A stretch of 64,000 bases of DNA from a virus: positions 95,684 to 159,683 of the IMG/VR virus record IMGVR_UViG_3300032224_000970, one strand, 5' to 3'. A program made the position numbers and the translations under genes. Positions 43,561 to 51,417 of this stretch are shown in pieces (positions within the stretch are counted from its first letter, which is position 1; each line of letters starts with the position of its first letter). A model generated the notes under the pieces. It worked only from the letters and a program-made list of their open reading frames with translations. It was not told the DNA's origin and made no database searches.

Positions 43561-43634
43561 TGGGGATTTGTGTAGTGGTAGCACAGCAGACTTTGACTCT
43601 GTTAGTACAAGTTCGATTCTTGTATCCCCTGCCA
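43561..43634 (+). tRNA. tRNA-Gln(TTG)
   Basis: cloverleaf, loop CTTTGAC, encoded CCA. Confidence 0.9.
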
Positions 43635-43679
43635 AACAAATGCGCATTTGCGTAGAGGTAGTGCTCATCTGTTTGGTAT

Positions 43680-43755
43680 GGTGTCTATAGTGTAGTGGTC
43701 TGCACTCCATGCTGTGAACGTGGAAGTATGAGTTCGATCCTCATTAGACACCCCA
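43680..43755 (+). tRNA. tRNA-His(GTG)
   Basis: G-1:C73, loop CTGTGAA, CCA. Confidence 0.9.
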
Positions 43756-43757
43756 AT

Positions 43758-43833
43758 GCTGCTTTAGCTGATGTGGTCATAGCACTGGTCTGAAGAACCA
43801 AGGAACGTGGTTCGATCCCACGAGGCAGCACCA
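43758..43833 (+). tRNA. tRNA-Phe(GAA)
   Basis: loop CTGAAGA, CCA. Confidence 0.9.
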
Positions 43834-43840
43834 AGAATTT

Positions 43841-43914
43841 CCTTTCGTAGCTCAAAGGTAGAGCACTCGGCTGATAACCGAGAGACATAGGATCGTTACC
43901 TGTCGAAAGGACCA
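43841..43914 (+). tRNA. tRNA-Ile(GAT)
   Basis: loop CTGATAA; atypical T-loop ATCGTTA; CCA. Confidence 0.88.
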
Positions 43915-43919
43915 AGTTT

Positions 43920-43994
43920 ACCCGATTGGTGAAATGAATATCACACAGTGCTACGAACGCTGGGTTGGGAGTTTGATTCTCTCATTGGGTGCCA
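43920..43994 (+). tRNA. tRNA-Arg(ACG)
   Basis: loop CTACGAA, CCA. Confidence 0.85.
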
Positions 43995-44000
43995 AGTTAA

Positions 44001-44090
44001 GGAAGTGTGGCAGAGTCTGGTTTATTGCACCTGTCTTGAAAACAGACGATCCGAAAGGATCCGTGAGTTCGAATCTCACCGCTTCCGCCA
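44001..44090 (+). tRNA. tRNA-Ser(TGA)
   Basis: long variable arm, loop CTTGAAA, CCA. Confidence 0.92.
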
Positions 44091-44113
44091 ATTTTTTATG
44101 AAAGGAGTTGTAT

Positions 44114-44695
44114 ATGCCAAGTGTATTCTTAGTAAGCGATACGCACTTCGGGCACGCTGGTGTATGCAGATTCACTCGTGACGATGGTGAGAAGTTAAGA
44201 CCATGGACTGATCCAGATGAAATGGATGAGGAAATGGTAAAGCGATGGAACGAAACTGTGAAGCCAACTGATAAAGTTTATCATCTTGGTGACGTAGTGA
44301 TCAATCGTAAAGCATTGAAGATTATGCATCGTTTGAATGGTGACAAAGTTTTGATTCGTGGTAACCATGATATCTTTAAGGATGATGACTACCGTGAACA
44401 CTTTCGTGAGTTACGTGCATATCATGTGATGAATGGAATGATCTTAAGCCACATACCGATTCATACAGAATCGTTAGGTAGGTTCGGTGTGAACATTCAT
44501 GGTCACTTACACAGTAATCGTGTAATGTTACCTGGATTTGGTGGCAAGATTACTGACATTGTTGATGCACGATACCACTGTGTCTGTGTCGAACAAACAG
44601 ACTTTCGTCCTATCTTATTTGAAGATGTGATCAAACGCATCAAAGAAGAAGGTGGTGAGGTAGGTTTTAAGAATGGTAATGGACCAACGATGTAA
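44114..44695 (+). CDS. calcineurin-like metallophosphoesterase
   Basis: SDTHFGH, HLGD, GNHD, HGHLH; AAGGAG SD. Confidence 0.88.
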   Translation: MPSVFLVSDTHFGHAGVCRFTRDDGEKLRPWTDPDEMDEEMVKRWNETVKPTDKVYHLGDVVINRKALKIMHRLNGDKVLIRGNHDIFKDDDYREHFRELRAYHVMNGMILSHIPIHTESLGRFGVNIHGHLHSNRVMLPGFGGKITDIVDARYHCVCVEQTDFRPILFEDVIKRIKEEGGEVGFKNGNGPTM

Positions 44696-44700
44696 GGATT

Positions 44701-44792
44701 GGAAGGTTGGATGAGTGGCTGAAATCAGCAGTTTGCTAAACTGTCGTTCATAGAAATATGAACCATGGGTTCGAATCCCATACCTTCCTCCA
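44701..44792 (+). tRNA. tRNA-Ser(GCT)
   Basis: long variable arm, loop TTGCTAA, CCA. Confidence 0.88.
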
Positions 44793-44796
44793 AGAT

Positions 44797-44874
44797 GCCC
44801 TTGTACGCAAATTGGAAAAGTGGCTCTCCTCAAAAGGGAGTATTCTGTCGGTTCGAGTCCGACCAAGGGTACCA
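44797..44874 (+). tRNA. tRNA-Leu(CAA), short variable region
   Basis: loop CTCAAAA, ACCA. Confidence 0.85.
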
Positions 44875-44882
44875 AAGAATTT

Positions 44883-44959
44883 GCGGATGTGATGGAATTG
44901 GTATACATATCGGACTTAAAATCCGAGTTCTGTGGGTTCGAGTCCCACCTTCCGCACCA
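44883..44959 (+). tRNA. tRNA-Leu(TAA), short variable region
   Basis: loop CTTAAAA, ACCA. Confidence 0.88.
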
Positions 44960-44966
44960 AGTTTAT

Positions 44967-45041
44967 ACGGCTATCGTTCAATGGATAGGACAGCATTCTT
45001 CTAAAGTGCGAATGAGGGTTCGATTCCTTCTAGCCGTGCCA
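44967..45041 (+). tRNA. tRNA-Arg(TCT)
   Basis: loop CTTCTAA, CCA. Confidence 0.88.
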
Positions 45042-45047
45042 ATGTTA

Positions 45048-45122
45048 GGGCTGGTAGCTTAATGGTAAAGCAGTCGACTCATAATCGATTGAGTGGGAGT
45101 TCAATTCTCTCTCAGCCCACCA
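45048..45122 (+). tRNA. tRNA(CAT), probably Ile2
   Basis: GGGCT acceptor, GACTCATAATC anticodon arm typical of Ile2. Confidence 0.8.
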
Positions 45123-45151
45123 TTGACTTGTAAGATTGTTTGAGGTATAAT
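45123..45151 (+). promoter_or_regulatory. internal sigma70 promoter
   Basis: TTGACT-17-TATAAT. Confidence 0.75.
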
Positions 45152-45160
45152 AGAGTAAAT

Positions 45161-45222
45161 GCGAGTGTGGTGGAATGGTATACACATCAGACTTAAAATC
45201 TGACGCTTAATTGATTGAGGGT
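45161..45222 (+). pseudogene. 3'-truncated tRNA-Leu(TAA)
   Basis: 5' acceptor strand, D arm, TCAGA-CTTAAAA-TCTGA arm and 5' T-stem present; T-loop, 3' acceptor strand and CCA missing. Confidence 0.8.
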
Positions 45223-45229
45223 GGATGAT

Positions 45230-45790
45230 ATGAAAGAGTTAAAAGATTTTATATTGATTTATGATAAAGTTTTGCCAGAAGATGTTTGTAAAGCATCGGT
45301 GGAAGATCTAGAAAATAGAAGTTGGGAGCAGCATTTGTTTTATGAAAGTAAGACAAATACGTATGCAGAAACTATTGATGACTGCGATATCTATTCAGAA
45401 CAAATTGTTACTGGACAGATTATTGCTCAAGCAACAGGTGCTGTGCTACATGATTATGTTAAGAAATTAAATTCTAATTACTTTAACGAGTTGCAGAAAT
45501 TTAGTAACATTACATATCATAGGTACAGAGATGGAAAGCAGATGGTTGAACACTGCGACCATATCCATGCCTTATTCAAAGGTAGTGCAGATAAAGGCAT
45601 ACCAATACTATCTGTTGTTGGTGTGTTGAATGATGGGTATGTTGGTGGAGAATTTGTAATGTTCGATGACTATGAGATTAAACTCGGTGCTGGAGACATT
45701 ATAGTATTTCCTTCTGTGTTCTTGTTTCCACATCGAATTAATAGAGTTACTGAAGGGACAAGATATTCTTTTGTTTCTTGGGCATGGTAA
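45230..45790 (+). CDS. prolyl-4-hydroxylase-like 2OG-Fe(II) oxygenase
   Basis: HCD, YVGGEF, FPSVFLFPH, GTRYSFVSW. Confidence 0.85.
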   Translation: MKELKDFILIYDKVLPEDVCKASVEDLENRSWEQHLFYESKTNTYAETIDDCDIYSEQIVTGQIIAQATGAVLHDYVKKLNSNYFNELQKFSNITYHRYRDGKQMVEHCDHIHALFKGSADKGIPILSVVGVLNDGYVGGEFVMFDDYEIKLGAGDIIVFPSVFLFPHRINRVTEGTRYSFVSWAW

Positions 45791-45791
45791 T

Positions 45792-45865
45792 GTGAGTGGA
45801 GCCAGTTGGACGGGCACTGGATTGCAAACCCATGGAAGTAGGTTCGATTCCTATCACTCACTCCA
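45792..45865 (+). tRNA. tRNA-Cys(GCA), imperfect anticodon stem
   Basis: GTGAGTG/CACTCAC acceptor, U73, loop TTGCAAA. Confidence 0.75.
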
Positions 45866-45891
45866 GAAAACGAAAGGTTTACATTATGAAT

Positions 45892-45955
45892 AACCCTACA
45901 GAGCGTAGGGGATTGAAAGAAAGTGCTTTACTTTAATTCAGCCTTCAGGCATAAT
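45892..45955 (+). promoter_or_regulatory. hairpin + early promoter cassette
   Basis: CCCTAC/GTAGGG then TTTACT-17-CATAAT. Confidence 0.75.
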
Positions 45956-45985
45956 TATACTATGTTGATTATGAAAGGAACTGAA

Positions 45986-46228
45986 ATGACTGAATTTGAA
46001 AAGAACTGCTACGGTATGAGCCAAGACGACATTCGTGAAGAATATATGAATTCTCTGACTGCTCGCCTGAGTGGTTTGGAAATGGTTGCGATGGGTGTGT
46101 TGTCTGATGCGCAAGAGTTGATGTCTTTTGGCAATGCTCAAGCGATGGATCAGTCCCGTAAAAACATCAACATCGCTAAGTTCATTCTTAGCGAAATGAT
46201 GGAAGCAAGAATGAAAGAAGTAGCGTAA
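45986..46228 (+). CDS. hypothetical protein
   Basis: AAGGA SD; CYGMS...LSDAQE...INIAKF. Confidence 0.65.
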   Translation: MTEFEKNCYGMSQDDIREEYMNSLTARLSGLEMVAMGVLSDAQELMSFGNAQAMDQSRKNINIAKFILSEMMEARMKEVA

Positions 46229-46236
46229 TAAATTAC

Positions 46237-46265
46237 TTTACTTTTATCAAGTGATGCGGTATAAT
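46237..46265 (+). promoter_or_regulatory. internal promoter of second tRNA block
   Basis: TTTACT-17-TATAAT. Confidence 0.8.
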
Positions 46266-46281
46266 AGCTGTATTGCTTGAT

Positions 46282-46297
46282 CGCTCTTTAAAAATTT
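46282..46297 (+). promoter_or_regulatory. rrn-type boxA element
   Basis: CGCTCTTTAAAAATTT between promoter and tRNA-Glu. Confidence 0.7.
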
Positions 46298-46312
46298 GTT
46301 GGTATTAAATTT

Positions 46313-46388
46313 GCTCGGTTCGTCTATCGGCTAGGACACTGCCCTTTCACGGCAGGAAGGAGGGGTTCGATTCCCCCACCGAGTACCA
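46313..46388 (+). tRNA. tRNA-Glu(TTC)
   Basis: loop CTTTCAC, CCA. Confidence 0.92.
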
Positions 46389-46389
46389 G

Positions 46390-46604
46390 ATTTAATTGTA
46401 TTGGGTTACCAAGCCAGTAGGTAACTTAGGAGAGAATAATCAGTAGCCGTACTGACTCTCGCTAAGTTACAAGAAACCTTGAGATAGTATCAGGAGGACG
46501 CTGGAACAACTTGGCACGTAATGTGATTGATGACCAGTCGTAGGACGACTACGTGGTTAACCATCGGATGGTGGTTGTCAGCAATCATCCCAGTATAATT
46601 AAAT
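46390..46604 (+). ncRNA. putative structured RNA (~215 nt)
   Basis: closing stem TTTAATTGTATTGGG/CCCAGTATAATTAAA with nested internal helices. Confidence 0.65.
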
Positions 46605-46608
46605 GTGG

Positions 46609-46757
46609 TATTAGTTTAGTGTTATCAAGGTATCGTTATAGGACGCTATGACTACTCGACAGTTAGGGTGCGACTGAAACTGTCTGATATAACTGCCACT
46701 CGCTTGTCAGTGCTAGCTACATTGTTGACAAATAGGCACGATAACACTAAACTAATA
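46609..46757 (+). ncRNA. putative structured RNA (~150 nt)
   Basis: perfect 18-bp closing stem TATTAGTTTAGTGTTATC/GATAACACTAAACTAATA. Confidence 0.65.
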
Positions 46758-46761
46758 TTAT

Positions 46762-46854
46762 GGAGGTATTGTAGATATGGCGTGTTCTGCAGCGGACTGT
46801 AAATCCGTTCCCTCGTGGTAAACATTGTTGGTTCGACTCCAACTACCTCCACCA
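46762..46854 (+). tRNA. tRNA-Tyr(GTA)
   Basis: loop CTGTAAA, long variable arm, atypical D arm, ACCA. Confidence 0.85.
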
Positions 46855-46980
46855 TATTCGGCAACTTCGGTTGCTGCCGATCCAGCTAAAGGTGCTGGCG
46901 TGTCATTCGGTGTATCACCTAGATATACTTTCGGTATCCACGAAGAGATACGGCTAAAGTTCGTAATGCCAACGATTTTT

Positions 46981-47055
46981 GGTTTGTAAGTGTTCATGGA
47001 CGCACGTATGCCTGTCACGCATAAAGAAGGGGATCGTTACCCCTACAGACCGCCA
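46981..47055 (+). tRNA. tRNA-Asp(GTC)
   Basis: loop CTGTCAC, G73, atypical T-loop ATCGTTA. Confidence 0.85.
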
Positions 47056-47080
47056 AGTTATTGTTGTGAAGGAAAAGAAA

Positions 47081-47434
47081 ATGAATATAAATGATATGGT
47101 TGGTAAAGTGTTCACTTCGGTGACACAAGATGGTTATGAGATGGTGTTTAAGAATGAAACTGAAACATTCAAATTCTATCACTATCAAGATTGTTGTGAG
47201 TCTGTTACTATCGATGACATCGTTGGTGACTTGTCTGACTTAGAAGATGCACCACTGTTGATTGCTGAAGAAGTTTCTGGTGAAGCACCTGTGTTGGATG
47301 ATGAATATCATGAGTGCGTTGAGTGGACATTCTACAAATTCGCAACTCGTAAAGGTTATGTTGATGTGCGTTGGTTTGGTGAGTCTAATGGCTACTACTC
47401 AACTAGCGTTGATTTGGAATATGAATTAGTATAG
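47081..47434 (+). CDS. conserved phage protein
   Basis: YHYQDCCESV...WTFY...GESNGYYS. Confidence 0.75.
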   Translation: MNINDMVGKVFTSVTQDGYEMVFKNETETFKFYHYQDCCESVTIDDIVGDLSDLEDAPLLIAEEVSGEAPVLDDEYHECVEWTFYKFATRKGYVDVRWFGESNGYYSTSVDLEYELV

Positions 47435-47439
47435 TATAT

Positions 47440-47514
47440 TGCGGGAAGGTCAAGTTGACCCGAATGGTCTCATAAGCCATATCGAGGGTGGAGCGTTACC
47501 ACCTCCCGCTACCA
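47440..47514 (+). tRNA. tRNA-Met(CAT), initiator-like, atypical
   Basis: unpaired 1:72, (T)GCGGG acceptor, loop CTCATAA, T-loop AGCGTTA. Confidence 0.75.
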
Positions 47515-47516
47515 AA

Positions 47517-47755
47517 CCTGCAGCTAATCACTGCTAGTGTGATCCGCACGAGAGAAACTGATTGACGATCAGTAGGATGGTTCTCCCTTTGAATAGGGCA
47601 TGAGTAAAATCATGGGTCTACCTAACCAGCGTTGGCAACACGAGAGTTCTGTCTGTGGCGAGTGGGTGGAGGGAGTGCGTGATGAAAGATTAATTGGAGT
47701 AAAACCTGACCAAATTTCTGATGCTCTATAATTACCACGACAGACAGGAAGCATT
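47517..47755 (+). ncRNA. putative multi-hairpin structured RNA (~240 nt)
   Basis: no + strand ORF; hairpins ACTGAT/ATCAGT, CCCT/AGGG, CATGA/TCATG, CTGTCTGT/ACAGACAG. Confidence 0.55.
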
Positions 47756-47757
47756 TA

Positions 47758-47834
47758 GCCCAGATGACGGAATTGGTATACGTGTTGGTCTTAGAAGCCA
47801 AATTTTGAGAGTTCGAGTCTCTCTCTGGGCACCA
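47758..47834 (+). tRNA. tRNA-Leu(TAG), short variable region
   Basis: loop CTTAGAA, ACCA. Confidence 0.88.
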
Positions 47835-47839
47835 ATTAT

Positions 47840-47914
47840 GGATCGTTAACTCAGTGGTAGAGTGTCTCTTTTACACGGAGAAGGTCGGGAGTTCGAATCT
47901 CTCACGATCCACCA
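47840..47914 (+). tRNA. tRNA-Val(TAC)
   Basis: loop TTTACAC, ACCA. Confidence 0.9.
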
Positions 47915-47965
47915 TTTTTATTAGGAGATAGTTATGAAGCGAAAATCTAAAACCCGAAAGAGTAT

Positions 47966-48041
47966 GGGGGTATGGTGAAATGGTTATCACAGCAGACTTT
48001 TAATCTGCCAGTTTAGGGTTCGAGTCCCTGTGCCCCTACCA
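47966..48041 (+). tRNA. tRNA-Lys(TTT)
   Basis: GCAGA-CTTTTAA-TCTGC, ACCA. Confidence 0.9.
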
Positions 48042-48119
48042 TATAAAAACACATTTCAGCAGGATAGCCTGTGGTGGATAGTTTCTGTTTAGTACAGTAT
48101 TCGAAGTGTGTTTCTATAT

Positions 48120-48194
48120 GGTAACATAGCACAATGGCAGTGCACATCCTTCATACGGATAAGGTTATTGGTTCAAGTCCAATTGTTACCACCA
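48120..48194 (+). tRNA. tRNA-Met(CAT), elongator-like
   Basis: loop TTCATAC, ACCA. Confidence 0.85.
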
Positions 48195-48204
48195 AAGGAA
48201 TTTT

Positions 48205-48440
48205 ATGTTAGAATATGTAGTTACATTTATTGCCATATTCATGCTTGATGTTGTTTATACATATTATCTAAGATGTGTGGCTAACAATCATGTTCTCGGT
48301 GCCAGTTGCTGGTCGATTGCATGTTACCTTCTTGGAAGTGTTGCTGTAATCAATTATACAAGTAATCACTGGTTGTTACTACCTGCAGTTGCTGGTGCAT
48401 TTTGTGGCACCTATGTAGGTATGATATTGAAAAGAAATAA

Positions 48441-48450
<10 letters not shown>
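48205..48450 (+). CDS. small membrane protein
   Basis: three TMs, AAGGA SD; last 10 nt overlap tRNA-Pro. Confidence 0.65.
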
Positions 48451-48517
<67 letters not shown>

Positions 48518-48524
48518 AGTTTTT

Positions 48525-48598
48525 GCCCTATTAGTTAAATGGTAGAACATCGGTTTTGTAATCCGAGGAAGGCAGTTCGATTCTGTCATGGGGCACCA
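48525..48598 (+). tRNA. tRNA-Thr(TGT)
   Basis: loop TTTGTAA, ACCA. Confidence 0.85.
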
Positions 48599-48606
48599 AG
48601 TTTTAT

Positions 48607-48681
48607 TCCACAGTAGCACAGCGGTAGTGCAGTTGACTGTTAATCAATTGGTCGGAGGTTCGATCCCTTCCTGTGGAGCCA
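48607..48681 (+). tRNA. tRNA-Asn(GTT)
   Basis: loop CTGTTAA, GCCA. Confidence 0.92.
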
Positions 48682-48767
48682 GTTTTGTGGTAAGGAAAGT
48701 AAAAGGAGAATGGGCAAGTCGTTGGCTAGACAATGACTAGATACCTCACCTGCCACAAATTTTATTT

Positions 48768-48841
48768 GGGGGATTAGTTAAATGGGATAACCATGGCTTT
48801 GCAAGCCATTATTGAGAGTTCGATTCTCTCATCCTCCACCA
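48768..48841 (+). tRNA. tRNA-Ala(TGC)
   Basis: G3:U70, loop TTTGCAA, ACCA. Confidence 0.9.
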
Positions 48842-48857
48842 ATTATGAAAGATAGCA

Positions 48858-49307
48858 ATGATACACGTAATCAAAGAACTGACTGAAGCGATATACAGCA
48901 TACTAACTGAAGATCCAGTTAGACCACATATCCCACAGCTGGATCGTGTTGGTGAACACAAAGATGTTTTCGTATATCGTAATCAAGATCAATCAGTTGC
49001 AGCAATCACATGTGTCAGCTATCAGAATTTTGTTCCAGTAAGCGAACGTGAGTTGTTTCAAGATTGCGAGAAACCAACCATCGCAGTGTTCTATACAATA
49101 TGGAGTTATGCTCCAGGAGCAGGTCGTTCACTGATATTTGATGCGGTTAAATATATCAAGGAAACGAATCCGAACATTGAACGATTCGTTACTCTATCTC
49201 CAAAGACAGAGACAGCGAAAAGGTTTCACATACGTAATGGTGCTATCATCTTTAGAGAGAATGAAGAAACAACTAACTATGAATATGTTAATGCAGTATT
49301 GCTCTAG
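48858..49307 (+). CDS. hypothetical protein, possible GNAT-like fold
   Basis: FYTIWSYAPGAGRSLI and AKRFHIRNGA resemble acetyl-CoA-binding motifs. Confidence 0.5.
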   Translation: MIHVIKELTEAIYSILTEDPVRPHIPQLDRVGEHKDVFVYRNQDQSVAAITCVSYQNFVPVSERELFQDCEKPTIAVFYTIWSYAPGAGRSLIFDAVKYIKETNPNIERFVTLSPKTETAKRFHIRNGAIIFRENEETTNYEYVNAVLL

Positions 49308-49376
49308 TAGCTCAGTTGGTAGAGCAACTGATTAGTAATCAGTAGGTCTGCGGTTCGAATCCGTACTAGAGCACCA
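49301..49376 (+). tRNA. tRNA-Thr(AGT)
   Basis: ACTGA-TTAGTAA-TCAGT, canonical D and T arms, ACCA. Confidence 0.9.
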
Positions 49377-49405
49377 TTTTAAAAATAAAATTGGGGAGAT
49401 GAAAG

Positions 49406-49684
49406 ATGAGTGATGGTGGAAAAGGTAGTGCGCCAAGACCATTAGCAGTTTCTTATGATGAGTATACAGCTAAATGGAATGCAATATTCAGGAACGAGGG
49501 TGTTAGTAAGTCACAGGCAAAACGATTAGCAGTGCAACGTGAAGATAACACTGGCACTGATAAGAATGAATACTACGATGTTCTTTCTACAGAAGACTGT
49601 ATAGATCCTGTTACACGTGATGATTCAGCTGCTGAAGATGAAGCATTCAAGTATGTGGAGGAACATCAGAAATATAAAGTATAA
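49406..49684 (+). CDS. hypothetical protein
   Basis: MSDGGKGSAPRP...WNAIF motif, GGAG SD. Confidence 0.65.
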   Translation: MSDGGKGSAPRPLAVSYDEYTAKWNAIFRNEGVSKSQAKRLAVQREDNTGTDKNEYYDVLSTEDCIDPVTRDDSAAEDEAFKYVEEHQKYKV

Positions 49685-49685
49685 T

Positions 49686-49759
49686 ATCTCGATAGTGTAA
49701 TGGCAGCATACCAGTCTCCAAAACTGTTGGTCGGGGTTCGAGTCCCTGTCGGGATGCCA
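49686..49759 (+). tRNA. tRNA-Trp(CCA)
   Basis: loop CTCCAAA, GCCA. Confidence 0.88.
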
Positions 49760-49761
49760 GA

Positions 49762-49847
49762 AAAAGTCCTTGAGGATAGATCAAGGCAGATTAATCACCT
49801 CCGAGTTCGGAGTAGTTTGATTAGCAGCAGGTGGAAGCCCTGCACCA
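49762..49847 (+). ncRNA. putative 3-hairpin RNA ending in ACCA
   Basis: CCTTGA/TCAAGG, CTCCGA/TCGGAG within TAATCA/TGATTA, GCAGG/CCTGC then ACCA. Confidence 0.5.
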
Positions 49848-49849
49848 TT

Positions 49850-49923
49850 GCGGGTAAGCACAAGGTGTGTCGCCAGCCTTCCAAGCTGTGCAGAGTGGAG
49901 TTCGACTCTCCCTATCCGCTCCA
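49850..49923 (+). tRNA. tRNA-Gly(TCC), reduced D arm
   Basis: GCGGG acceptor, loop CTTCCAA, U73-CCA. Confidence 0.8.
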
Positions 49924-49944
49924 TAAAATATAAGAGGTGTAGTC

Positions 49945-50427
49945 ATGAAAAAAATTAATATTGATGAAGTGAAAACTTACATTGAAGTACAGAGTCCCGA
50001 AACAAAAATCTACATTGGTGGTGACTCCGAACGATTTAATATTGGTAATGACTGGTATGCGGACTACACACTTGCGATTGTTGTTCATATCAATGGTAAC
50101 AATGGATGTAAAATTTTTGGTGAAACCATTCGTGAACGTGACTGGGATCAGAAGAAAGACAAGCCACGTATGCGTCTGATGAACGAAGTATACAAGATCG
50201 CAGAGTTATACCTAAAGTTGCAAGACGTATTGGAAGATAGAGAGGTAGAAGTTCACCTAGATATCAATCCAAACGAAATGCATGGTTCAAGTTGCGTTAT
50301 CAATGAAGCAGTCGGTTACATTCGTGGTATGTGTAATGTTATCCCACTGGTTAAACCAAATGCATTTGCAGCAAGTTATGCAGCAGATAGATTGAAGTGG
50401 GTTATGCAAGAAAGAAAAGTTGCTTGA
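49945..50427 (+). CDS. RNase H-like YkuK/DUF458 family protein
   Basis: IYIGGDS, RLMNEV, EVHLDIN, KPNAFAASYAAD. Confidence 0.8.
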   Translation: MKKINIDEVKTYIEVQSPETKIYIGGDSERFNIGNDWYADYTLAIVVHINGNNGCKIFGETIRERDWDQKKDKPRMRLMNEVYKIAELYLKLQDVLEDREVEVHLDINPNEMHGSSCVINEAVGYIRGMCNVIPLVKPNAFAASYAADRLKWVMQERKVA

Positions 50428-50452
50428 CATGCAATAATGTTTAGCGTATAAT
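50424..50452 (+). promoter_or_regulatory. consensus sigma70 promoter
   Basis: TTGACA-17-TATAAT. Confidence 0.8.
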
Positions 50453-50473
50453 TATGTTTATTGAAATGAAGGA

Positions 50474-51067
50474 ATGACTATGGAAACTATTAATTTGAGA
50501 AAAGCAAATGCAATCCAAAGCGAGATCCGTAAAGCGATCTCTAGTTCTGATGTTAGCGATACTGCTACCATCACTGAGTACAGCAAAGACATTGCTGGTA
50601 GTCTTGAGAAAGCAATGGCAGATTATGCCACTGATGTTACTCGCAAGGTAGCATTAAACACTGCGTTGTTTAACATTCGTAAGAGTGTTGCTCAAGCAAA
50701 CGCCACTAATGGTATTAGCGATATCCTTGCTGATGTTGAATTGGTCGATGCCAAGATCACAGTTTACAGCAATGTTGCCACTAAGCAAGTTGCTAAGACT
50801 CTGACTGAAATCTCTAATCGTATCGAGAAGATTAAAGCTGTGCCACCTGATGCTTCTCGTGCTGCAGCAATCTATGGTGATCGTTACAACACAGTGGAAA
50901 CATCTGTTGTTGAACAAGGTACTATCGATGGTGCCAAACAAATTGTCAAGCAATTGAAGCGTGAGAAGCAAGCACTTCAAGACAAACTGTTGACACTGAA
51001 TGTTAACACTACAATCAACATTGATAGTGTTGATGAGATGGTTTTGAAGATCGAAGGTATTTTGTAA
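50474..51067 (+). CDS. long coiled-coil hairpin protein, possibly DIP1984/DUF6847-like
   Basis: INLRKANAIQ...LQDKLLTLNVNTTI end motifs, all-helical. Confidence 0.55.
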   Translation: MTMETINLRKANAIQSEIRKAISSSDVSDTATITEYSKDIAGSLEKAMADYATDVTRKVALNTALFNIRKSVAQANATNGISDILADVELVDAKITVYSNVATKQVAKTLTEISNRIEKIKAVPPDASRAAAIYGDRYNTVETSVVEQGTIDGAKQIVKQLKREKQALQDKLLTLNVNTTINIDSVDEMVLKIEGIL

Positions 51068-51071
51068 GTTT

Positions 51072-51320
51072 TGAGGAACAGTGCGATAAGAGAGCAGAAT
51101 GGGTAGTTGCAAAAATCTAATACTTCTAAAGTATTGGCTTGGTCTTGAAAACCAAATCCGAACAATTGTCCGACTCTGTTGTTGCTCCACGATATATACT
51201 AGACTGTTATAGTCGTTGCTTGTTGCTTCGTGGTTTATAACTTTTGTGGACTGTCCATTGCATATTGCTAATTGCATATTGCTATGCGACTATTCGCTTG
51301 AATTGAAACACTGTTCCTCA
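51072..51320 (+). ncRNA. putative ~250-nt structured RNA with heptamer-repeat loop
   Basis: 12-bp closing stem TGAGGAACAGTG/CACTGTTCCTCA; ten 7-nt units at 51216-51285. Confidence 0.7.
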
Positions 51321-51323
51321 TCT

Positions 51324-51399
51324 GCGGGAGTAATTCAGTTGGTAGAATGCCTGCTTGCCAAGCAGAATGTCGTCGGTTCGAGTCCGATCTCCCGCTCCA
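51324..51399 (+). tRNA. tRNA-Gly(GCC)
   Basis: loop TTGCCAA, U73-CCA. Confidence 0.92.
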
Positions 51400-51417
51400 A
51401 TTTTATAGGATGATTTT

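Follow-up and report, generated by a model that had tools for sequence, protein, structure and literature searches.

The window analysed here is a stretch of 64,000 nucleotides (nt), the last 64 kb of a complete 159,683-base-pair (bp) IMG/VR virus record with direct terminal repeats (IMGVR_UViG_3300032224_000970, positions 95,684 to 159,683), and the coordinates given below refer to it. Near the end of a cluster of 26 tRNA genes (43561-51399, as called by ARAGORN), the window carries a module formed by a gene for a protein of most likely 195 amino acids (50480-51067, plus strand) and, directly downstream, an RNA domain of about 250 nt (51073-51319, plus strand). This RNA is real, conserved and structured, and gene and RNA are linked in both directions. 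We propose, with a probability of about one half, that the protein works as a symmetric homodimer and reads a row of regularly spaced base triplets in the RNA, the two parts constituting a new phage ribonucleoprotein.

A conserved RNA linked to its upstream gene

Relatives of the module were gathered in four independent ways: with the window protein in IMG/VR, with an invariant 26-nt word of the RNA, with distant protein representatives, and with a DNA pattern in metagenomes. The metagenome set was thus selected by a pattern that fixes part of the conserved core of the RNA. A covariance model, called R1, was built on 12 sequences with a hand-derived structure and was used to align 46 full-length copies, 45 of them distinct. 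Where single loci have to be told apart, they are cited by our own numbers (L010 and so on).

Going from the RNA to the protein, 40 unique RNAs have 650 nt or more of sequence available on their 5' side, and the protein gene immediately precedes every one of them (E < 1e-5); 29 of these 40 RNAs, to judge by their locus identifiers, were retrieved by the DNA pattern alone. Going from the protein to the RNA, the RNA is present with homologues of 54%, 46% and 40% identity. A representative of 30% identity gave access to 16 loci, among which L032 and L034-L036 possess the full RNA, L033 is truncated at its start, and L037, L038 and the L025 group have divergent versions that are matched in part by the model. 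Six further representatives (29-37% identity) were chosen blind to their flanks and yielded four R1 matches (L283, E 7e-9; L288, 4.8e-7; L285, 5e-5; L287, 8e-4). L285 and L287 also have perfect arrays of the six units described below, L284 shows four in-phase heptads and no R1 match, and the contig of L289 is truncated. The cultured phages Domovoi, CcrColossus and CcrPW are matched by R1 with E-values of 1.7e-9, 1.8e-10 and 4.5e-10, respectively. A previous sequence-only reading of this DNA had tied the RNA to the upstream protein, and the flanks of the homologues bear this out, since the RNA accompanies almost every homologue, even at identities as low as about 30%, the exceptions being the clade of Pseudomonas phage PA5oct and loci L024 and L030. 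Because the other neighbours change by lineage, the conserved unit consists of the gene and the RNA.

The same reading had described a 249-nt element closed by a perfect 12-bp stem, starting 4 nt past the stop codon and ending 3 nt before a tRNA-Gly gene, and all of this is present. The closing stem joins 51072-51083 with 51309-51320, and the domain defined by its folding statistics and by the R1 model measures 247 nt, the outermost U-A pair (51072/51320) extending it to 249 nt. Folded as a 261-nt stretch it reaches -76.3 kcal/mol (z = -4.2), and none of 200 shuffled sequences folds as well. In the R1 alignment, 89.4% of the pair cells are standard pairs, against 76.4% with shuffled partners and 32-46% with partners slid by 1-3 columns, and compensatory changes on both sides are found in 50 of the 57 modelled pairs, counts that come from an alignment fitted to the model in which many rows are close relatives. 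For this reason we also relied on evidence free of any alignment: in 16 relatives the closing helix P1 was recovered as the longest complementary run anchored on unrelated conserved motifs, and it is always 8-12 bp long with a sequence that differs by lineage. Since many of the pairs are G-U, the fold forms from the plus strand only.

Helices P1, P3, P4, P5, P6, P7 and P8 are each supported by the R1 alignment; all features of the domain lie on the plus strand. P1 (51073-51083 with 51309-51319) is the most regular, with 99.8% of its cells paired and double changes in 8 of 11 pairs. Above it, an internal loop places the purine-rich strand GAUAAGAG (51085-51092) opposite AAUUGA (51301-51306); alignment columns 14, 16, 18, 19 and 229-234 are near-invariant in this loop, which may contain a tandem G-A motif. 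P2 (51092-51095 with 51296-51299), in which three of the four pairs are 89.9% paired and the fourth 72.7%, stacks below P3 (51101-51110 with 51286-51295; 93.7% paired, double changes in 7 of 10 pairs). Together, P2 and P3 close a multi-branch core whose branches are P4, P5, and a P6 arm that carries P7 and P8. In the P4 hairpin (51117-51137) the six main pairs are 94.5% paired, all six with double changes, and three distal pairs are poor (63.1%). The P5 hairpin (51139-51155) has 5 bp, 92.6% paired and all with double changes, and a near-invariant 7-nt loop, CUUGAAA, so that it looks like an anticodon arm. P6 pairs 51168-51171 with 51248-51251 (88.9%; three of four pairs with double changes), its 3' strand lying inside the first two heptads of the array. 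P7 (51187-51192 with 51228-51233) directly follows an invariant UGCUC and is 94.1% paired, with double changes in all five modelled pairs, and the P8 hairpin (51202-51214) is 89.8% paired, with double changes in five of five pairs.

The strictest conservation is found in single strands, namely UGCUC before P7, UGCUUGUUGC between P8 and P7, UUGUG before the 3' strand of P6, and the heptad array that links P6 to P3. The almost invariant UGCUUGUUGC (51217-51226) contains two in-phase UUG units, and columns 145-153 are identical in 38-45 of the 45 sequences; this invariance is partly imposed by the search pattern used on metagenomes, and the motif is kept too in most of the loci retrieved through the protein. 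Several other pairings were considered and discarded. RNAalifold paired UCCAC with the second GUGG, but L018, L021 and L023 have compensatory changes that speak for a pairing of CCACGA with UCGUGG; a helix P6b (51178-51182 with 51237-51241) is only 56.7% paired; and candidate pseudoknots between the conserved single strands show no covariation.

The divergent version of the L025 group (L025:2085-2330, also in L026-L029 and L031) comprises the closing stem, UGCUCC and a P7-like helix, has no regular six-unit array, and is followed by a long hairpin terminator; R1 matches it at positions 107-180 only.

No family of Rfam matches the RNA: there is no hit over 51072-51320 at E up to 1, in the whole window at E up to 0.01, or in the homologous RNA of 8 loci at E up to 10, a negative that in Rfam 15 includes RAGATH-27 (RF03100), GOLLD, ROOL, YrlA, tmRNA and 6S. 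The Infernal comparison suggested by the sequence-only reading thus leaves the RNA without a catalogued family. RAGATH-27 in particular matches neither this RNA nor seven relatives at E up to 10, nor is it found in T5, CcrColossus or Domovoi at E up to 1. ARAGORN calls nothing at 49760-51323, the RNA being neither a tRNA nor a tmRNA, and the resemblance of P5 to an anticodon arm is no more than that.

The heptad array and the predicted protein dimer

The array (51244-51285, plus strand) consists of six heptads, each formed by NUG plus four variable bases, and the last four of them (51258-51285) are predicted to be single-stranded. Such a run of six in-phase units was reached by none of 2000 shuffles of the window RNA. 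Among the 45 distinct sequences the U and G columns of the heptads are invariant or nearly so (the triplet columns are identical in 38-45 of 45) and the first base is mostly U. The spacer columns are free; position 189, for instance, is C in 20, A in 18 and U in 7 sequences. Columns 200-202, 203, 207-209 and 210, which include the last two units, are likewise invariant or almost so and fall outside every search pattern. The array was checked in 18 loci, namely the window and 17 that had been found by way of the protein: 12 of them possess a perfect array of six units and the rest have fewer units in phase, three of the imperfect arrays (L021, L023 and L035) being split by an insertion. The array is also kept across base composition, from AT-rich lake phages to the GC-rich CcrColossus: CcrColossus and CcrPW have six UUG units in an RNA of 53-54% G+C, Kikimora has GUG, and Domovoi has UGC with five of six units in phase. 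As a DNA pattern alone the heptads are not diagnostic, because only 4 of 77 newly tested IMG/VR loci with the pattern belong to the family and the rest are mostly chance.

Ten phased heptamers in a single open loop had been listed by the sequence-only reading for 51216-51285. The letters are as listed, and in relatives the phase is conserved for the last six units (51244-51285) and for the first two (51216-51229). Units 3 and 4 do not: they correspond to the 3' strand of P7 and a linker of variable length, and for that reason the ten units do not form one conserved register. The single open loop has to be given up, since covariation places parts of the tract in P7 and P6.

That loop was thought to be enclosed by an inner stem (51209-51215 with 51287-51293), whose 3' arm is the 3' strand of P3 and whose 5' arm is the 3' strand of P8. 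Its arms are complementary and their capacity to pair is conserved: 93.4% of the cells can pair and 9 cells show double changes. The one real double change is a U-A to A-U switch at 51210/51292 in seven sequences; in those same rows the P3 partner at 51104 changes too, and all three changes trace to essentially one lineage. As the main fold this stem was rejected in favour of the nested P3, P6, P7 and P8, because it would break P3 and P8 and form a knot with P6 and P7, all of which have far more covariation. It is retained as a possible alternative state that would compete with P3 and P8, and the pairing of the P1 5' strand with heptad 2 is a second, weak alternative of the same standing.

With regard to the protein, the open reading frame (ORF) runs from 50474 to 51067, with a TAA stop codon at 51065-51067. 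The coiled-coil gene of about 197 amino acids described previously is therefore real, except that its translation most likely begins at the second ATG (50480) and gives 195 amino acids, since AAGGA lies 6 nt upstream of this codon, the database copy P0001 and the closest homologues have 195 amino acids, and the alignments of more distant homologues begin at this methionine. No Pfam family matches the protein, and its only PHROG is an unnamed one (phrog_25230, E 2e-7). Its family comprises 687 clusters at 50% identity and is largely viral, according to matches in BFVD and the ESM Atlas.

AlphaFold2 predicts a confident all-helical bundle with short N- and C-terminal strands (predicted local distance difference test, pLDDT, 95.6). 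The top match among solved structures is 3kdq in both searches made, with a Foldseek probability of 1.0 (E 0.022) and a VIA-align Z of 10.8 over 142 of 152 residues at a root-mean-square deviation (rmsd) of 6.9 Å; helical bundles often reach a VIA-align Z of this size, so the match is no proof of kinship. 3kdq is the crystal structure of a DIP1984-family protein from Corynebacterium diphtheriae, and the window protein differs from it in being about 40 residues longer and in the large rmsd. At the level of profiles, the NCBIfam model of DIP1984 (NF038048) gives no match with the window protein at E up to 0.1 and matches 2 of 79 family members (best E 2.6e-4), and PF20935 (DUF6847) matches none of the 79 members at E up to 0.01 and nothing in the whole genome at E up to 1. 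A cluster of the ESM Atlas in which 19% of the members belong to DUF6847 is a neighbour of the window protein, with TM values of 0.58 and 0.71 by shape and 0.92 by language-model features. The likeness to DIP1984/DUF6847 guessed from the sequence alone thus holds at the level of the fold and fails with the hidden Markov models of both families, and the protein is probably a distant relative of DIP1984/DUF6847 rather than a member. This likeness explains nothing yet, because the DIP1984 family itself has no known function. Weak matches to phage scaffolding proteins (PF06810, E 0.04; 2r9i, Z 8.5) stand alone, and this identity was rejected.

The window protein is predicted to self-associate as a homodimer, the assembly for which predictions were run. 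The pair scores an ipSAE of 0.71 against 0.00 for the best control, with 167-177 contacts, a partner pLDDT of 88-89, and at least 95% agreement in contacts between runs. In the calibration of the prediction tool, 20 of the 30 solved homo-pairs and 1 of the 23 solved single chains attained this mark. The interface of this dimer would run along residues 26-152. The best-conserved polar residues (R7, K8, Q13, K160, K163, Q164, Q167, D168, N174 and T177) lie outside the predicted interface, at the two ends of the dimer, and would therefore be free to form a ligand-binding surface; it is there that we would look for a candidate RNA-binding site.

Promoter, tRNA setting and carriers of the module

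The gene is preceded by the consensus sigma-70 promoter noticed in the sequence-only reading (50424-50452, plus strand), composed of TTGACA, a 17-nt spacer and TATAAT, with 12 of 12 consensus positions matched. Of the 16 other RNA-bearing relatives checked, 11 have a promoter with 10-12 of the 12 positions, located 20-46 nt upstream of the start codon. By these matches the module appears to have a promoter of its own within the tRNA cluster, one that is strong, of host type and presumably early.

Downstream, a tRNA-Gly(GCC) gene recognized by ARAGORN and Rfam (51324-51399, plus strand) starts 3 nt after the RNA. In most of the relatives located in tRNA clusters a tRNA, usually Gly and sometimes Met or Trp, follows the RNA at 3-22 nt (71 nt in L018), and no tRNA follows it in L010, L036 and the Caulobacter and Brevundimonas phages. 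Given so close a tRNA, RNase P would define the 3' end of the RNA, and a cut at the 5' end of tRNA-Gly would leave a 4-nt 3' tail. Release by RNase P, as the sequence-only reading had it, is thus plausible in the window and in most of the relatives in tRNA clusters, but it cannot be general.

At the other end, the linker GUUU (51068-51071, plus strand; AGUUU with the adjoining bases) separates the stop codon from the RNA and is conserved in alignments of the AT-rich relatives. RNase E prefers a purine, any base, A or U, and then UU. The conserved (A)GUUU could mark a 5' processing of the RNase E type or a coupling to translation termination. The nucleotides that follow P1 are ACC in most relatives and AUC in the window and L032, and they recall the end of a tRNA, formed by the discriminator base plus CC.

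An RNaseH-like gene (49945-50427, PF04308) precedes the module, and a gene for a DUF3307 membrane protein follows the tRNA-Gly(GCC). This RNaseH-like gene is one of several small ORFs interspersed in the tRNA cluster, together with those of a phosphoesterase (44108-44695) and a 2OG-Fe(II) oxygenase (45215-45790); the latter two had been considered as paralogues of the module protein and were discarded, as they resemble it in length only. ORF-free gaps of the cluster (about 45866-46312, 46389-46761 and 47435-47757), some of them flagged as structured RNAs in the sequence-only reading, show no Rfam match at E up to 1. A 207-amino-acid ORF on the minus strand (50654-51277), antisense to the protein gene and to half of the RNA, most likely arises as an artefact from the codon composition of the plus-strand gene.

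Cultured phages also carry both the gene and the RNA: five Domovoi-type Brevundimonas phages, Kikimora, and the Caulobacter phages CcrColossus (gp272) and CcrPW. The RNA is not annotated in the records of the Brevundimonas and Caulobacter carriers; in CcrColossus it is predicted downstream of gp272, at about 201346-201561 of NC_019406. Comparison of the locus with 50,697 phage records by blastn matched the tRNA alone, and tblastn with the window protein gave no match. Two family members scanned by a crude method against 185,579 prokaryote genomes had no relatives there, which is not proof of absence. No published description of the module was found; the RNA might be among the roughly 8,500 candidate structured RNAs, all unnamed, that were catalogued from IMG/VR in 2023 (PMC10690425).

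The tRNA arrays of the relatives have some peculiarities of their own. Unusually long tRNA-Ile(UAU) genes (95 nt) are called in L032 (1342-1436), L034 (1336-1430) and L035 (1349-1443), and a tRNA with anticodon CUA in L034 (3058-3132), labelled Pyl by ARAGORN, could be an amber suppressor. Just upstream of the module, L018 possesses a full-length GOLLD RNA (L018:1870-2329; RF02032, 182 bits against a gathering score of 150) with an embedded tRNA-Asn; two large, ornate RNAs thus share one phage tRNA array.

A possible ribonucleoprotein, its alternatives and its meaning

Conserved triplets repeated at a fixed period with free spacers fit the recognition of single-stranded RNA by a repeating protein surface, and the two-way linkage makes the upstream protein the most likely reader. 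According to the model that we propose, the promoter would drive transcription of the protein gene, the RNA and the tRNA as one unit. RNase P acting at the downstream tRNA would set the 3' end of the RNA, and a nuclease cut in the conserved AGUUU linker may set its 5' end. In the folded RNA, six NUG triplets at intervals of exactly 7 nt would be exposed in a row that is mostly single-stranded, and homodimers would bind to this row through one conserved surface per triplet, which would amount to about three dimers per RNA. The ribonucleoprotein would be made early in infection. An early expression and the location in a tRNA cluster would point to RNA metabolism, translation or counter-defence; our guess is that the module has an early function in host takeover, RNA metabolism or anti-defence. 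A wider claim, to which we give slightly less than even odds, is that these are representatives of an undescribed class of viral ribonucleoproteins, in which dimers of the DIP1984 fold would occupy the six NUG triplets of a dedicated RNA, early in infection and in many large phages, with a role of their own in infection, such as countering host defences that target RNA or reprogramming translation or RNA metabolism.

Several observations weigh against the proposed ribonucleoprotein. Loci L024 and L030 have a terminator only and no RNA. The PA5oct clade has the protein (E 2.2e-19), and R1 finds no RNA in the 72-nt gap before the next gene; the protein can therefore work in the absence of this RNA. 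Besides, the PA5oct homologue gp304 (L276:2501-3064; NC_071039 107445-108008) is tagged 'ESI-MS/MS' in its record. For PA5oct, 93 virion-associated proteins have been reported (PMC7318152), and gp304 may be one of them. The window protein is not basic (isoelectric point 5.7; family median 6.2), and searches of Pfam and NCBIfam reveal no known RNA-binding domain in it. Heptads 1 and 2 overlap the 3' strand of P6, and so the six units are not all equivalent. The origin of the covariation counts, mentioned above, has to be added to these points.

One alternative, which we consider unlikely, is that the RNA forms no free particle and is a cis element of the protein's mRNA, located in its 3' untranslated region or intergenic, where it would act as a processing insulator, as a protector of the 3' end left by RNase P, or as an operator by which the protein, or translation that runs into P1, would adjust the expression of the gene. 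In all AT-rich members the stop codon and the RNA are 4-6 nt apart, so that a terminating ribosome would reach P1, but in Domovoi, CcrColossus and CcrPW about 47-55 nt separate the two, and a tight coupling to translation is thus not general. No terminator was found at the array or the RNA; the RNA is predicted to lie within a longer transcript with no terminator of its own, and in L036, Domovoi and CcrColossus a protein gene flanks it on either side, all of which would suit a cis element. The two conserved alternative pairings, one of the inner stem against P3 and P8 and the other of the P1 5' strand with heptad 2, suggest switching, although the evidence for it is essentially one evolutionary event. 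Moreover, a protector of the 3' end does not need some 250 nt with invariant single strands that are better conserved than the protein, whose homologues are as low as about 30% identical.

It is likewise improbable, in our opinion, that the RNA is an independent non-coding RNA that binds or titrates a host factor, for instance a hexameric or otherwise cooperative single-strand RNA-binding protein or a nuclease, while the upstream protein only shares the promoter or acts elsewhere, such as in the virion. The nearly neutral charge of the protein, its want of an RNA-binding domain, and the tagged PA5oct homologue that has no RNA partner all favour this explanation, and the invariance of single-stranded motifs among widely differing phages and hosts would be consistent with a conserved target in the cell. 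Phage tRNA regions are also known to hold stable RNAs of unknown function, T5 rnaI and rnaIII being annotated as such. Against it, promoter sharing alone can hardly explain why the linkage holds in both directions (40 of 40 RNAs) while every other neighbour changes, and the drift of the triplet by lineage (UUG, UGC, GUG) fits a co-evolving phage partner better than a fixed host target. Finally, that the repeats act as DNA (iterons or operator sites), arise by chance or belong to a short coding sequence is very improbable, since, although a DNA-binding protein might in theory recognize short direct repeats of TTGC-type heptamers and the degenerate pattern is common in viral DNA, the surrounding helices covary with G-U pairs sensible on one strand only, the spacing from repeats to helices is fixed, and the overlapping ORFs (51216-51413 on the plus strand and 50654-51277 on the minus strand) cross the tRNA or run antisense to the gene, through freely changing spacers.

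The proposed reading of the heptads by the protein has precedents in bacterial regulation. TRAP is a ring of 11 subunits with β-sheet structure that reads 11 GAG or UAG triplets separated by 2-3-nt spacers in the trp 5' leader. The sequence-only reading had suggested a recognition of the TRAP type, and the periodic triplets with free spacers, together with the repeating protein surface that is proposed, are indeed common to both, whereas the period, fold, copy number and location are different; the closest solved parallel is HutP, with its 4-nt spacers. The HutP hexamer recognizes NAG triplets in two groups of three, with 4-nt spacers and hence a period of 7 nt (PMC2425495). In the hut terminator RNA of Bacillus subtilis, as in the array described here, conserved triplets alternate with non-conserved spacers of 4 nt and there are six triplets in total (PMC2425495). 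The HutP multimer reads single-stranded RNA and wraps it around itself (PMC2425495), while binding is only proposed for the window protein. Other traits set the two systems apart: HutP is an alpha/beta hexamer, activated by histidine, that reads NAG triplets in two groups in a 5' leader and prevents termination, whereas here the triplets are NUG, the six units are contiguous, the array belongs to a closed 250-nt domain downstream of the partner gene, the protein is a predicted all-helical dimer, and there is no terminator. The array is thus not part of a 5' leader in which it could compete with a terminator or a ribosome-binding site.

Among systems that pair a protein with an RNA, the type III toxin-antitoxin modules (ToxIN-like) have RNA repeats of about 36 nt upstream of an endoribonuclease gene; in the phage module the repeats are of 7 nt and downstream, and the window protein matches no nuclease family or fold in Pfam, Foldseek and VIA-align searches. 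Y RNAs bound by Ro60 share a stem that closes the ends, but here YrlA gives no match, and the neighbours are an RNaseH-like gene, DUF3307 and the helical protein, not Ro60 (TROVE). With respect to phage RNAs, T4 species 1 and 2 are stable RNAs encoded in the tRNA region of that phage. T5 rnaI and rnaIII (NC_005859), GOLLD and ROOL are, like the module RNA, structured non-coding RNAs located at phage tRNAs, probably released by tRNA processing, with no known function. None of these RNAs, the T4 species included, is known to have a dedicated protein partner or a heptad array. In T5 (L281:285-501; NC_005859 30284-30500) rnaIII and rnaI lie beside tRNA-His, are annotated as 'stable RNA with unknown functions' and are unrelated to R1; T5 has no match to PF20935, RF03100, the family protein profile or R1.

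The RNA constitutes a family that is not catalogued in Rfam, is more strictly conserved than its partner protein and is present in phages of model hosts such as Caulobacter crescentus. Because cultured phages carry both parts, the module is open to direct experiment. If the proposed ribonucleoprotein proves to be true, it would provide the first functional handle on the DIP1984/DUF6847-like fold and would stand beside TRAP and HutP as another case of periodic triplet reading. It would also hint at the purpose of some of the stable RNAs of phage tRNA clusters that have long lacked an explanation.

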